DNA of 64,000 nucleotides from the NCBI GenBank assembly GCA_951406725.2, contig OX597833.1:49662001-49726000 (forward strand). Direction: 5' to 3'. Of the stretch, positions 34,992 to 60,018 are shown piece after piece (position 1 is the stretch's first letter; every line of letters starts with the position of its first letter). Both the position numbers and the translations under genes were made by a program. The notes beneath the pieces were generated by a model that saw only the letters and a program-made list of their open reading frames with translations, did no database searches and was not told the origin of the DNA. Source of the stretch: Octopus vulgaris. Lineage: Eukaryota.

Positions 34992-35249
34992 TTCTAGGTT
35001 TTGACCTGTCCTCAGCGTACGACAATCACCGGTTTTCGATGAAGGGAGGTCCCAATGCAAATTCTCATATCGTTTTTCCAGTAACTTTTCGTCACTGATT
35101 TCGAAAAACTGTCTGCAAGCAATAATAATCTCTGAACGAGGCATAAACAGTAGCTGCACGACAATGTGAGGTATACTTGCCATCTCAGGGACCTCCCTTC
35201 ATCGAAAACCGGTGATTGTCGTACGCTGAGGACAGGTCAAAACCTAGAA
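34992..35249. repeat. Perfect 62-bp inverted repeat (34992-35053 / 35188-35249)
   Basis: ttctaggttttgacctgtcctcagcgtacg...gaagggaggtccc and its exact reverse complement, 134-bp spacer. Confidence 0.95.
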
Positions 35250-35422
35250 ACTACAGTCCGTGCGTATCACTTAGGTTAACGAGGGAAGGGTGACCTCCCT
35301 TTGCAAATTCCATAAGGCACAGAAAGTGTGCCTAAAGCCAGCTGGAGACAATGTTCTCCTGGGGCTACAAGCTACAGTAACACTCACCCTTAGTGGTTAG
35401 CCATATTGAGATGGCAAGTATA
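35172..35422 (+). mobile_element. Hammerhead-containing repeat family 1 (Penelope-like pLTR / retrozyme-like)
   Basis: Homologous to 53820-54030, 56830-57108 and 59856-60018; 16-bp inverted copy of its 3' end (tatacttgccatctca) at its 5' end. Confidence 0.7.
35220..35264 (+). ncRNA. Type I hammerhead ribozyme motif
   Basis: cgtacg CTGAGGA c AGGT caaa ACCT a GAAA CT ac AG TC cgtgcg: 6-bp stem I (one GU), extendable by gtgat/atcac; 4-bp stem II with a C.A closing mismatch; GUC cleavage triplet. Confidence 0.75.
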
Positions 35423-35494
35423 TATATATATATATATATATTTTGTACATGTTCCAGTCATTTGACAGCGGCCATGCTGGAGCACCGCCTTTAG

Positions 35495-35650
35495 AGTGGT
35501 GAAAGAGTACAGCAGGGATCTCCACCACCCCCTGCCGGAGCCTCGTGGAGCTTTTAGGTGTTTTCGCTCAATAAACACACACAACGCCCGGTCTGGGAAT
35601 CGAAACCGCGATCCTCCGACCGCAAGTCAGCTGCCCTAACCACTGGGCCA
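35495..35650 (-). mobile_element. SINE group E 5' part, adjacent to a SINE A tail fragment (35445-35492)
   Basis: tggcccagtggttagggcag...ggtttcgattcccagaccggg tRNA-like head on minus strand. Confidence 0.85.
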
Positions 35651-36020
35651 TATATATATATATATATATATATATATATATATATATATATATATATATA
35701 TATCATATGTATGTATGTATGTATGTATGTATGTATTTGTTTAATTTGCAAAGCGTTGTGTTAGTTAATGATGGTCTTTGAAACTACTTCGTAAATCTGA
35801 TATTATCCGCGGAAAGACATTTCCCGTTGAGATTGTTACAGGAAACATAATCCACTTGGGTGTTAACAATATTGAAGAGTTTCATCTCCTGTGGGTTTGC
35901 TAGAATCGGTTTCATTGAAATCGTGTTAGTATACCAAATCCACATGAATGCATGGGTGAGGTTTTCTTTTCCATAGCATTAATGATAGCAACGTTATGTT
36001 TTAATGATATATTCTGCTAA

Positions 36021-36435
36021 GGCGGCTAACTGGCAGAAACGTTAGCACGCCAGGCGAAATGCGTAGCCGTATTTCGTCTGCCGTTACGTTCTGAGTCCAA
36101 ATTCCGCCGAGGTCGATTTTGCCTTTCATCCTTTCGGGGTCGATAAATTAAGTACCAGTTACGCACTGGGGTCGATGTAATCGACTTAATCCCTTTGTCT
36201 GTCCTTGTTTGTCCCCTCTATATTTAGCCCCTTGTGGGTAATAAAGAAACAGGTATTTCGTCTGCCGCTACGATCTGAGTTCAAATTCTGCCGAAGTCGA
36301 CTTTGCCTTTCATCCTTTCGGGGTCGATTAAGTAAGTACCAGTCACACACTGGGATCGATATAATCGACTTAATCCGTTTGTCTGTCATTGTTTGTCCTC
36401 TCTGTGTTTAGCCCATTGTGGGTAGAAAAGAAATA
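36021..36435 (+). mobile_element. SINE group B, dimeric, followed by an older B-variant to ~36620
   Basis: Head plus two units. Confidence 0.92.
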
Positions 36436-36792
36436 AGAATCGTTAGCAGGACAGGAAAAGTGCTTAGCGATATTGCGTTGATCTTCACGTTCTCAAGTTC
36501 AAATCTCGCCTGAGTTGATTTTACTTTTCATCTTTCGGGATTGACAAAATCAGTTCCAGTTGATCACTGGGGGTCGATGTAATCGACTTACATCTTAACC
36601 CGAAAATTATGATATAAGCATTCTGGAGAGATAAAAAAAACAGAGAAAGCATATGCTTTCCTGTAACAGAGAGAGAGAGAGAGAGAGAGAGAGGGAGAGA
36701 GAGAGAGAGAGGAAGAGAGAGGAAGAGAGAAAGAGAAAAGGCGAGGAGAAGAGAGAGTTATGTGATGCAAAGGAAAACATAAAAATAAAAAA

Positions 36793-37044
36793 ATAAATGC
36801 GTACTTTTAAAGCCTAGCCAGGCTCATGGGCCTGGTTCCCGATTTATATAGCGTCTGTGTTCCCCAACTGGACGGGACGCCAGTCCATCGCAGCATTACT
36901 CATTTTTGCCAGCTGAGTAGACTGGAGCAATGTGAAATGAAGTGTTTTGCGCAAGAACGCAAAACGTTGCCCGGTCCAGGGATCGAAACTACAATCTTAC
37001 GATTATGATGCTGACGCCCTAACCACTAAACCACGCGCCTCCAC
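36793..37044 (-). mobile_element. SINE group C
   Basis: Reverse-complement match; flanked by aaaggaaaa(c/t)ataaa duplication. Confidence 0.88.
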
Positions 37045-37299
37045 TAAAGGAAAATATAAAGGAAAGCGAAACAGATGACGATAGATATAGTCAGAGAGGA
37101 AAGAGACTGATTGGAGGTCACGTAGGTTTCAGTGAGTTTCAGGAAGAGGGGATAGAAAAAAACCACGGAGATTCAGCACTTTTGTGGAAGTGAGGGTGGG
37201 AGTGCGGATGGTTACATACAAGAAAAGAAGAAGAAGAAAATTGCTATACACTCGCACATACTACTAAGTCGCATATATACAAATATTATATTCACATGT

Positions 37300-57108: not shown

Positions 57109-57119
57109 ATATATATATA

Positions 57120-57300
57120 TCTATTATATAAAATCCGTTCTGTCTGTCTGTCTATCTGTGTGTCTTCTAGGATCTCGGGCATCCTCCATCCGATTGCGCT
57201 CAAATTTGATATGGAGATACCGACGGTATCAGGGCATGTATAAATCTTGAAAAAAATTACAAAAATCGATTCCAGGTGAGAATGCGATCGATAAAGTGAA
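57120..57300 (+). mobile_element. Non-autonomous Helitron-like 5' end
   Basis: A|TCTATTATATAAAA start, (TGTC)n tract, ccgattgcgctcaaatttg motif typical of such elements. Confidence 0.6.
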
Positions 57301-57527
57301 TAAAATCGTTTTTCTTTGGAATAGAAAAAAAAATCTTATCTTTATTACTTCTTTTACTCGTGTCTCAAATTTAGGTTAAATCAGTGTTTCTTAAATGGGA
57401 GGCCTATGGGACGGTCGGACAAGTTGTTTTGAGAAAATTTGGTTTAAATGTTTGACAACTCAGCACCGTCTATTTGAGGGGGGGGGGCGTTTTTCTCCTA
57501 TATATATATATATATATATATATATAT

Positions 57528-57975
57528 ATAATAATAATAATAATGAAATTATTGTATACAGTGCTCAGGTGCACCACAACTTGTCAGAAAGTGCATATAA
57601 AGTACATGCAGTAATGTAGAAATGTCTGGAAAGTGAACAGTGTATGAGTCAGATACATGCTTGCATGTGTATGGAGGGGAGAAAATCAAGTGTAGTGTTG
57701 GCGAATCTCAGGAAGCATGGAAGTTTTGAAGAATGCAGTGCTCCGACAACTAACAACCGATGCCGGCAGTTTGTTCCATGCTTCAGCAACTCTCAGCGTG
57801 AGAAAATGTTTCCTGAAGTCATGGGAGCTGTGCGGTTTTCTTACTTTGTAAATATGTCCACGGGTGTTAGATGGGTGGAGTTTGAAGAGGTGTTCAGAGT
57901 TATTGTTTGTGCGATGGTTGATAATTTTATGGGTGTCTGCCAAGTCAGCTGCCAGCCGTCGGAGTTTCAATATGT
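57528..57975 (-). mobile_element. CR1-group LINE 3' end (ORF2 C-terminus 57686-57975, 3' UTR, (ATT)n tail)
   Basis: LKLRRLAADL..HKII...TRGHIYKV...RKHFLTLRVAEAWNKLPASVVSCRST..FK. Confidence 0.9.
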
Positions 57976-58969
57976 ATAAAATCATATCAAAGGGAAATGG
58001 AAATTAATAGAAATTTTCATTTCCAAAGACTATGTATTACTCATAAAATGCACATTTAAACACATAAGGAATCCACTCATGGGATTCAACACGCTAGAAA
58101 GAACAGCTAGGTTCTATAACCATAAAATTAGGGATAAAATTCGACAGGAACGAAATGAAAAAGTAAAAACTTTTACCATCTAGTTTCCTGGACAATTTGG
58201 TTTCTGATTTTAGTTTAGCAAGTAAATAATTTTTACTCGCGAGGTGAAATCGTTTTCAACAGGTACACCTTAGATTAAATATAGAAACACGAGGCGATCA
58301 ATTCTGTGCCCCTTGTTTATATATCCTAATTTTTTCAAAATCTACTGCGCAGACGCAGTCCTTCGCCGGCAATAAAAATATACCAACTTTTAAAAACCGA
58401 AAATTATCCAAAAACTTACAATATTTAATCATACACACATACACACACAGACACACACACATATATATTATATAATAAATATGATATATGTGTATATATG
58501 TGTGTGTGGGCATGTTTCTGAGCTCGCTTGTGTGTACGTGTGGTATATGTCAAGGTTTAAATATGTTAATAATGTTATGTGAGTGTTTTAGGGGGGGGGG
58601 GGGGTAAATGTTAGAACCCATCTTCTGAAAAAATAAATATCTAGAAAGGAAAACCAAATTAGTGCTGAGAATTATTGAATAGTAATTGAAAGATGTAGGA
58701 AGAGCAGATGCAGTAAAGATTTTTATCATCAGTTGCAAAGATATCAGAGCCTACAAATTGCATCAATTTTAATGTGGGCAAACATCAGCAGCAGCAGGGG
58801 CCACAGATGGTGTAAAAGACCGATGCAGTAACATCAGCAAGCACAAACCAAGAATCATTAGGTTCTCGTACAGCAATCAGCAGCATTGGCAATTGCAGTG
58901 ATGTCGACATCAGCTGCAGCAACAGTAGGGGATTGTGGTATTAAACAAAAGATTACAGTGACACTACCT

Positions 58970-59835
58970 CAAGTAGTAACAGCAGCAGCAGCAGCAGCAA
59001 CAGCAGCAGTAGCAGCAGCAGCAGTAGTAGCAGCAGCAGTAACTGTGGCAACAATAACAGCAGGAGTGACTACGTGAAAAATGTCGGTGACGGCTGCCTC
59101 TCGTCATCGTTACCACACATATCATAAATAATGCAGTTCCGTCGCTGTTGAGGTGAGAGGGAGAAGAAAGCGATGATGTGATTACGGCAACAGTAAAAGA
59201 GAGCATTAGCGGTTGAGCTGCATCATTATCGTCGTCAACATCATCATCATCATCACCATCATCATCATCATCATCATCATCATCATCGTCATCGTCATCA
59301 TCGTCATCATCATCATCATCATCACTAGTATCATCATCATCATCATCGTCATCGTCATCGTCATCATCATCGTCATCGTCATCATCATCATCATCGTCAT
59401 CGTCATCATCATCATCATCATCGTCATCGTCATCGTCATCGTCATCATCATCATCATCGTCATCGTCATCATCATCATCATCGTCATCGTCATCACCATC
59501 ATCATCATCGTCATCGTCATCGTCATCATCATCATCATCATCATCATCATCATCATCATCATCATCGCCATCATCATCATCATCATCATCATCATCATCA
59601 TCATCATCATCGTTGTCATCATCATCTTCGTCATCACCAGCAGTAGCAGCAACAACAATATTGTAGTAGTAGTAGTAGTGGTCGTGGTGGTTGTGGTGGA
59701 GGAGTGGTGGTGTTAGTGGTGCTAGTGGTGTGGATATGTGAAAGTAGTAGTCATGATGGTGTAGTAGTAGTAGTAGTAGTAGTAGTAGTAGTAGTAGTAG
59801 TAGTAGTAGTAGTAGTTGTGGTGGTGGTGGTTGTA
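58970..59835. repeat. (CAG)n, (CAT/CGT)n and (GTA/GTG)n microsatellite block
   Basis: Directly visible. Confidence 0.95.
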
Positions 59836-59855
59836 ATTTCTAAGTCTTTTGAGTC

Positions 59856-60018
59856 ACTAGTCTCTGGATGCAGGTTTAGCTGGGTGGGGGTACTTACCTC
59901 CCCCTTGAAAACAAGGACACAGGAAATGTGTCAAGGCCGACAGGAAGCGTTGCTGCTTCCTAGGGCTAAATAGCAGTAGTATTATTCCCTTCATGGGACT
60001 GTCACATTAAGTTGACAG
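59856..60018 (+). mobile_element. Hammerhead-containing repeat family 1, copy starting at stem III / cleavage triplet
   Basis: ACTAGTCtctggatgcaggtttagctgggtgggggtacttacctcccc...gactgtcacattaagttgaca aligns with the reverse complement of 53823-53992. Confidence 0.7.

Follow-up and report, generated by a model that had tools for sequence, protein, structure and literature searches.

The four related repeats in a 64,000-nucleotide stretch of Octopus vulgaris DNA (contig OX597833.1, forward-strand positions 49,662,001 to 49,726,000; hereafter the window) are 5′-truncated copies of an abundant non-coding mobile element with a circularly permuted unit of 352–354 bp. The family is likely a non-LTR retrozyme mobilised by a Penelope-like element (PLE), with cleavage and RNA circles predicted from its sequence, and we consider it probable that an endonuclease-bearing PLE copies the element in trans. 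The class itself has already been described, and the octopus family is likely a further member of it (PMC7229834; bioRxiv 10.64898/2026.07.22.740005). A first-pass annotation of the window had suggested a retrozyme-like, Penelope-linked repeat, a reading now supported by ribozyme covariation and by the insertion footprint; its estimate of a ~230-bp element is replaced by the unit length read from tandem spacing (~353 bp).

Similarity between the four bodies was significant for all groups compared, as that annotation had held: copies 1 and 3 are 78% alike over 140 nt (E 6e-27), copies 2 and 4 71–73% (E about 1e-22), and the A group and B group 61–63% (E about 1e-8 to 1e-9). The copies fall in four subfamilies (copy 1 in A, copy 2 in B, copy 3 in C and copy 4 in B′), and identity between subfamilies of the element ranges from 61 to 90%. 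The unit has a GC content of 0.42–0.43, and the longest stop-free frame of one subfamily C monomer is 65 codons, in keeping with the earlier statement that no ORF is attached. The first 100 core-pattern matches included eight dimers and one trimer, with no long master arrays among them, and no dimer occurs among the window copies. Natural units folded as circles gave z scores of −5.2 to −7.8 in five of six cases and −1.9 in the sixth, while a separate fold run on the unit cut at the ribozyme gave z −7.5 with paired ends. The family thus shows the type I hammerhead, the short non-coding unit (about 170–400 bp in such elements), tandemly occurring and of less than 45% GC, and the self-paired monomer by which non-LTR retrozymes are recognised.

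Copy 1 consists of two arms, both of subfamily A. The inverted arm (34992–35187, minus strand, 196 bp) contains the tail region, the promoter region and the hammerhead core up to GAAA, has lost its 3′ end and so ends at neither of the two standard sites described below; within it lies a PSE-like motif (35093–35099, minus) common to U1 and U2 promoters, with a putative promoter function. The 5′-truncated direct arm (35188–35422, plus) stops close to end site 1, where it abuts (TA)n. The main arm of copy 2 (subfamily B; 53813–54113, minus) terminates at end site 1, with (TA)n close by, and is accompanied by a short inverted piece (54166–54203, plus) ending at end site 2. The extents first assigned to these two copies therefore stand only in part, since the inverted arm of copy 1, the reach of copy 2 to 54113 and its inverted piece had gone unlisted, as had a fifth short fragment of the tail region (47271–47329, plus; 80% over 59 nt, E 3e-9). 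Copy 3 (subfamily C) is folded back as first described, with inverted 84-nt arms that are 100% identical: a left arm lacking the ribozyme (56786–56987, minus; unit positions 49–250) ends at end site 2, a 30-nt junction piece (56987–57016, plus) covers unit positions 52–81, and a right arm (57025–57108, plus; unit positions 123–206) ends at end site 1 against (TA)n. Copy 4 (subfamily B′; 59856–60036, plus) is 5′-truncated inside stem III. It does start near the cleavage site, as had been noted, but 7 nt upstream of the predicted cut after 59862, so that the cleavage triplet is kept, unlike in a copy of a cleaved end. Being truncated, the window copies are unlikely to act as sources.

A scan of the window matched the hammerhead core only at 35226 (plus) and 54016 (minus), so the positional conservation proposed for all four copies holds for copies 1 and 2 and fails for copies 3 and 4, which have no core. 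The type I hammerhead of copy 1 (35220–35264, plus; core from 35226) has the 6-bp stem I originally drawn, formed by 35220–35225 pairing with 35259–35264, together with a stem II of 4 bp plus a C·A mismatch, a 2-bp stem III with a tetraloop, and a predicted cut after 35258. The C·A mismatch at the base of stem II is common in the family, base pair 10.1–11.1 being unpaired in 16 of 28 sequences, and the stem III palindrome differs by one base from that of most subfamily relatives. Copy 1 is the only window copy with a plausible ribozyme. In copy 2 (core 53986–54016, minus) a 7-nt deletion removes the 5′ strand of stem I, which is intact in its subfamily; no stem I pairs remain, contrary to the first impression that pairing was kept, and the ribozyme is predicted to be inactive. 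The same deletion leaves the candidate PSE-like motif of copy 2 (54087–54093, minus) only 77 nt before the core.

Genome-wide, the core pattern matched 3,125 times against 29 for a reversed-pattern control, and the covariation-like signal first glimpsed in the two window copies proved much stronger at family level. In an alignment fitted to the model, 13 of 19 pairs changed on both sides, 87.8% of cells were paired (16–46% when slid) and none of 500 shuffles reached the covariation score; an unfitted 15-sequence alignment gave 6 of 19 pairs changed on both sides, again with 0 of 500 shuffles. A pair-type measure did not rise above shuffles in either alignment. Rfam yielded only microsatellite-driven matches for the whole window among the 150 of 282 matches listed, no gathering-level match for four loci and no hammerhead in copy 1 at E up to 10.

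The insertion footprint was counted at 66 sites on one contig (C1), chosen by a 3′ 24-mer. The 3′ ends of 96 of 101 arms lie at two sites about 43 nt apart (52 at site 1, 44 at site 2 and 5 elsewhere), and 64 of these 96 ends abut (TA)4 or more. Head-to-head pairs used one of each site in 29 of 33 cases, the same site twice in one and unassignable sites in three, i.e. one of each in 29 of 30 assignable pairs (p 2.9e-8); exceptions to this rule are some subfamily A loci (e.g. L003/L005 and L019). Duplications of 11–15 bp were present in nine pairs outside microsatellites. Two 3′ end sites, a tail at one end, an inverted 5′-truncated arm and an AT-rich target together make up a PLE-type insertion, and a resident element with a 775-aa RT/GIY-YIG frame leaves the same footprint: its two end sites lie 30 nt from each other, its insertions are flanked by (TA)n, and all eight of its pairs combine the two sites. 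We therefore consider it likely that the retrozyme borrows Penelope enzymes. The terminal repeat of this resident PLE, the one family searched genome-wide, has no blastn similarity to the unit, and a PDB search with its protein returned no match. An anole PLE (Poseidon) studied in vitro likewise has two RT start sites downstream of the hammerhead, which bound the tail, and its start site did not differ between strands (PMC11167929), making the octopus one-site-per-arm rule a specific, testable constraint on PLE integration.

Among the 47 arms that reach the cut region, 41 pass through it and six have 5′ ends within unit positions 28–45, a rate like that of other bins, so that no excess of 5′ ends marks the cut site. 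Mobilisation from the end of a linear, self-cleaved RNA is thereby not supported. At the predicted transcription start there is no clear excess either, with three non-LINE arms ending close to it. Sixteen distinct arms are longer than one unit, and tandem units within one arm diverge by 2.5% compared with 7.5% between loci. Crossing of the cut site and arms exceeding one unit both fit a circular or multimeric template. Contigs from three runs presumed, by guess, to be RNA and from one run of unclassified kind cover the element, a coverage that does not speak to transcription, strand or ends.

The element likely carries an snRNA-type Pol II promoter, judging by a candidate PSE, an element expected ~50–60 bp upstream of the start, that it shares with the host U1 and U2 genes at fixed spacing. 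The 7-mer ATCAGTG lies at −57 to −59 in 15/15 U1 loci and at −57 to −60 in 6/10 U2 loci. Of 127 distinct hammerhead copies, 51 have it 82–85 nt before the core, as do 40 of the 54 that keep upstream element sequence. It is missing from all 8 U6 loci listed (of 12), several of them retrocopy-like, and from the repeat of the resident PLE. Subfamilies C and C′ align strongly with the U1 promoter (0 and 2 of 1000 shuffles), six others only weakly (6 to 542 of 1000), their agreement being weaker beyond the 7-mer. At loci outside the window, a LINE with APE, RT and zf-CCHC domains, and with homologues bearing zf-RVT, inserts at the predicted transcription start of the element.

No ORF is contiguous with any arm at the 66 sites, the sequence upstream being the next unit, and no parent emerged from the flanks, those shared among 421 being a LINE, duplicated loci, microsatellites and other repeats. 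An RT plus GIY-YIG ORF between terminal repeats made of the unit was not found, with one PLE family searched genome-wide. The PLE ORF downstream of one copy (L083) was considered as a parent and rejected: it is separated from the copy by (TA)n, and its family has its own hammerhead repeat, without similarity to the unit. Between three other copies (L165, L171 and L235) and the PLE ORFs beside them (TA)n again intervenes, and the PLE ORFs next to copies carry their own repeat where their end is covered. PLE fragments beside L076 and L075 lie on the other strand. Domains in the 140 of 160 window frames scanned are of transposon origin only, a result that fits an intronic and a non-intronic window alike. 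Any cutting of a host pre-mRNA, as first proposed for an intronic setting, would most plausibly come from copy 1.

That the copies are solo pLTR stumps of an autonomous PLE, and not an independent family, had been an alternative from the outset; every footprint feature matches truncated PLEs (PMC3846280, PMC8557442), many genomes contain far more dispersed PLE hammerheads than full elements (PMC4209133), and a parent could lie beyond the part of the genome that was searched. Since the arms run on into further units and not into an ORF, we disfavour this reading and hold it to be improbable, the more so given the flanks and the (TA)n-separated ORFs described above and stems III and I of 2 and 6 bp, which resemble those of the canonical retrozyme type (PMC4209133). 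A satellite or MITE-like foldback repeated at the DNA level, in which the hammerhead motifs are decayed or arose by chance, would account for the foldback structure, the tandem dimers and the lack of an Rfam match, but is barely credible: fixed 3′ ends with random 5′ truncation mark reverse transcription, and the 3,125 core matches against 29 and the covariation also speak against it.

Somewhat less remote, if still unlikely, is a Penelope-dependent element copied from uncut tandem read-through RNA, its length arising through template jumps and its hammerhead trimming the RNA or riding as a passenger, with no circular intermediate. Uncut multimers explain the crossing of the cut site and the arms longer than one unit equally well; ribozyme mutants of the anole PLE still insert in vitro, where uncut RNA is the main substrate and cleavage dispensable (PMC11167929); and PLEs normally show partial tandems, including Naiads without canonical hammerheads (PMC8557442). 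Against this stand the retention of the ribozyme with compensatory changes across subfamilies of 61–90% identity, the paired ends of the unit cut at the ribozyme, the restriction of tandems to dimers and one trimer in the first 100 pattern matches, and mussel repeats of equal size that accumulate as circles (PMC7229834).

For a retrozyme copied in trans by a PLE, we propose the following cycle. In insertions longer than one unit, RNA polymerase II would start at the internal U1/U2-type promoter, about 24–27 nt upstream of the core, and two successive hammerheads would then excise a one-unit RNA with paired ends, to be closed into a circle by a host ligase. A Penelope-like RT/GIY-YIG enzyme would make nicks ~12 bp apart, one on each strand, in AT-rich or (TA)n DNA, and each DNA end would prime at one or other of two fixed positions in the RNA, which lie about 173 and 216 nt past the ribozyme cut; here the footprint is observed and the enzyme presumed. 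The two cDNAs, whose products are seen in the genome, would stop randomly, in some cases beyond a first round, and be joined head to head. An insertion exceeding one unit would again possess a promoter and two ribozymes and could act as the source of further copies. Weighing against this cycle are the in vitro results on the anole PLE given above and, in Xenopus, the cleavage of only one of nine dimers in vitro (bioRxiv 10.64898/2026.07.22.740005).

Metazoan non-LTR retrozymes include mussel repeats of 350–390 bp (Cervera and de la Pena 2020, PMC7229834; reviewed in PMC7761336), and neither article mentions Octopus in its main text, the supplement of the former lying outside that check. The octopus family resembles them in its ~350-bp non-coding unit of 42–43% GC, type I hammerhead, dimers and trimers, many dispersed monomers, strongly self-paired predicted circle and co-occurring PLEs. 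Its link to PLEs differs in being a counted insertion footprint and not co-occurrence or terminal-repeat homology, and the family is known from sequence, its circles and cleavage being predictions. With endonuclease-bearing PLE insertions it shares the head-to-head inverted 5′-truncated arm, the optional tail at one end only (PMC3846280, PMC8557442), short duplications and AT-rich or (TA)n targets; unlike them, it has no ORF, a tail of about 43 nt as opposed to 30–40, a hammerhead that is not of the minimal PLE type and a promoter-like motif of snRNA type. Newt satellite 2 carries a hammerhead, in line with what PMC7229834 says of amphibian satellites. Like the octopus element it occurs in tandem, and its internal Pol II promoter is of the snRNA type (Coats, Zhang and Epstein 1994, as cited in PMC2220036); the phyla differ, and the octopus promoter is a sequence-based prediction. 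The octopus LINE is like target-specific Tx1-clade LINEs such as Xenopus Tx1L in being an APE-RT LINE with a zinc-knuckle ORF1 that inserts at one position of a multicopy sequence (PMC4640811, PMC8869645); the likeness is one of domains, and its target, in contrast to those of Tx1-clade LINEs, would be a retrozyme at its predicted transcription start.

Metazoan retrozymes were considered in a 2020 review to be seemingly without promoters or motifs indicating a partner, their transcription and the enzyme that moves them being open points (PMC7761336), and a 2026 preprint names the moving enzyme by homology in Xenopus (Li, Clavereau and Pollet; bioRxiv 10.64898/2026.07.22.740005). What the octopus family contributes is a footprint counted in a mollusc, a candidate promoter for which the newt offers a precedent, and a rule of one site per arm that is nearly strict and common to the resident PLE. 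More tentatively, and with rather less confidence than we attach to copying in trans, the data may reflect a three-tier system in which a self-promoted (U1/U2-type) hammerhead circle is copied by a PLE RT dimer whose two nicked DNA ends must prime at different fixed RNA sites, with synthesis continuing round the circle beyond the ligation point and so rebuilding sources, while a LINE retargeted from snRNA starts to the start of the element sometimes travels as cargo. If so, the 352-nt RNA would offer a minimal substrate for tests of twin-site priming and rolling-circle reverse transcription.

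The four repeat bodies that the first-pass annotation had placed in the window were all present and homologous to one another: copy 1 (34992-35187 on the minus strand and 35188-35422 on the plus strand; subfamily A), copy 2 (53813-54113, minus strand; B), copy 3 (56786-57108; C) and copy 4 (59856-60036, plus strand; B'). A structural scan of the whole window returned hammerhead cores at 35226 (+) and 54016 (-) only, and a model built later revealed a truncated core in the inverted arm of copy 1. In the copy 1 hammerhead, which is predicted to cut after 35258, stem II comprises 4 bp and a basal C.A mismatch, and stem III 2 bp. 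The earlier claim that copies 1 and 2 both keep their stems holds for copy 1, where stem I has 6 bp, and fails for copy 2, where 7 nt of stem I are gone. Copy 3 is without a ribozyme and copy 4 starts 7 nt upstream of the predicted cut. The window also contains a fifth, short fragment from the element's tail region (47271-47329), as well as fragments of a LINE 3' end (zf-RVT; 16817-17791, +), another reverse transcriptase (RT; 60593-61030, +) and a mariner-type HTH (50119-50451, -).

In searches of the genome (2.8 Gb, 227 contigs), each window copy drew about 2,500 first-look candidates, and 40 of these were scored; for subfamily C, an exact 24-mer had at least 1,565 matches (control, 0) and the hammerhead core pattern at least 3,125 (control, 29), with candidate, 24-mer and core-pattern counts all being lower bounds. 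The unit is circularly permuted, because sequence downstream of the body recurs upstream of the ribozyme; tandem units are spaced at 352–354 bp, and eight representative units showed 61–90% identity over 200 nt. The covariation suspected from the window copies extends across the family: compensatory changes in stems I and II separate the A/C and B groups at 13 of 19 pairs in an alignment of mutually related sequences fitted to the hammerhead model, where the covariation score was matched by 0 of 500 shuffles and the pair count by 41 of 500, and compensated changes occur at 6 of 19 pairs in an unfitted alignment of 15 sequences. A unit opened at the predicted cut folds with its ends paired (z -7.5). 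The hammerhead would probably self-cleave.

Insertion structure was examined at every contig C1 site of the subfamily C 24-mer among the matches listed (70 loci, 66 kept after four overlapping ones were dropped). Of 101 arms of at least 50 nt, 52 end at unit positions 195–207 (site 1), 44 at 243–254 (site 2) and five elsewhere, and (TA)4 or longer adjoins 64 of 96 ends. Head-to-head pairs (n = 33) combined one of each site in 29 cases and site 1 twice in one, with an unassignable arm in three, so that the one-of-each rule was obeyed by 29 of 30 assignable pairs (p 2.9e-8); nine pairs outside microsatellites carried duplications of 11–15 bp, one was ambiguous, two had none and 21 were unreadable in (TA)n. 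In the window, copy 3 obeys this rule and copy 2 fits it, and the inverted arm of copy 1 breaks it. Score-biased samples of subfamilies A and B exhibited the same two end sites, with a few exceptions in A. A stem enclosing short hairpins around site 1 (unit ~148–225; window 57050-57108 and 56815-56890) appears conserved across subfamilies and is a candidate RT-binding element. A tail at one end, an inverted arm and short duplications are features that the retrozyme shares with Penelope-like elements (PLEs; PMC8557442, PMC3846280), and in vitro the PLE tail is bounded by two RT start sites (PMC11167929).

The arms also bear on the form of the RNA template. In the C1 sample, arm 5' ends occur with roughly even frequency along the unit; of 47 arms reaching unit position 45, six end within 28–45 and 41 continue past, and 16 arms exceed one unit (17 alignments, one duplicate). 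Divergence is 2.5% between tandem units of one arm and 7.5% between loci; for paired arms it is 4.6%, compared with 9.0%. Copies of this kind cannot come from a linear monomer that is cut at both ends, whereas a circle and an uncut multimer can each produce them. Since a linear-only lineage would shorten every generation, circles or template jumps would be needed. A circular RNA form of the unit is plausible.

A resident PLE, abundant and with many near-identical copies, has a 775-aa RT/GIY-YIG frame and, judged by its motifs, is putatively Neptune-like. The hammerhead repeat that it carries is unrelated to the unit by blastn, but its insertions behave as those of the retrozyme do: they end at either of two sites, 30 nt from each other, are flanked by (TA)n, and combine one of each site in 8/8 head-to-head pairs. 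This element is a candidate enzyme source for the retrozyme, and the mobilising enzyme would presumably be of this kind. The linkage to Penelope RT/GIY-YIG ORFs raised by the first-pass annotation was not seen in the loci covered, with no contiguous ORF beyond the arms at the 66 C1 sites or in shared flanks among 421. The 775-aa PLE is young, has a tandem period of 4,271 bp and shows a variant core in its hammerhead (genomic loci L099:496-3550, L089-L117), and three more PLE families or fragments were found (L085:5948-9281, -; L081:6240-7239, -; L235:1954-2698, +).

The unit also carries ATCAGTG, a motif resembling the snRNA-type promoter element (PSE; position in animals, PMC1761439). It lies 57–59 nt upstream of 15/15 U1 loci examined (of 42 matches) and 57–60 nt upstream of 6/10 U2 loci examined (of 48), the other U2 loci having a one-base variant (three) or a LINE end there (one). 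Among 127 distinct hammerhead copies it stands 82–85 nt before the core in 51 and is absent from 70, and 40 of the 54 copies retaining upstream element sequence have it. Subfamily C and U1 have in common an 11-mer and a second block (0/1000 shuffles; six other subfamilies against U1, 6–542/1000). From this placement, transcription is predicted to start 24–27 nt upstream of the core, and the motif may act as a promoter. A review holds that retrozymes seem to be without promoters (PMC7761336). In newt satellite 2, by contrast, a promoter of the snRNA type is reported (as cited in PMC2220036); that of the octopus unit is a sequence-based prediction.

Outside the window, the retrozyme is itself the target of a ~5 kb LINE with APE, RT and zinc-knuckle domains (L083:2079-6962; L303-L322), whose protein has its best-scoring named homologue in Argonauta. 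Mostly full-length LINEs are inserted 26–28 nt upstream of the core in several subfamilies. In 19/19 pattern matches the LINE gives way to the retrozyme at a point 26 nt ahead of the core, 18 continuing into the ribozyme region and one into a second LINE; in an overlapping set (30 of 40 matches) the flanks were retrozyme in 27, tandem LINE in one and unrelated in two. A target duplication of ~20 bp marks the 5' junction in 13/20 loci. In L038 (~77% identity) and L046, a more distant LINE relative abuts subfamily B copies at the equivalent position, upstream of the hammerhead, and a LINE-like 3' end resembling that of the retrozyme-targeting LINE immediately precedes the start of a U2 gene (L355:1400-1500). 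Literature searches joining retrozyme with Tx1, or Tx1 with target-specific and hammerhead, found no papers. At L303 and L312, a head-to-head retrozyme insertion, with its arms terminating at site 1 and at, or close to, site 2, has LINE sequence in one arm or in both, which hints that the LINE was possibly co-mobilised with the retrozyme by Penelope machinery.

Animal retrozymes have been described as a class (PMC7229834, PMC4209133, bioRxiv 10.64898/2026.07.22.740005), the last source arguing that they are non-autonomous PLE derivatives, and 235 hammerheads were counted in the giant squid genome (PMC6962438). Among the papers listed by searches joining octopus with retrozyme, or with Penelope and hammerhead, none describes the octopus family; the supplement of PMC7229834 may list octopus. 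The octopus repeats are a real and abundant retrozyme family of this described class, and one that is likely Penelope-dependent.
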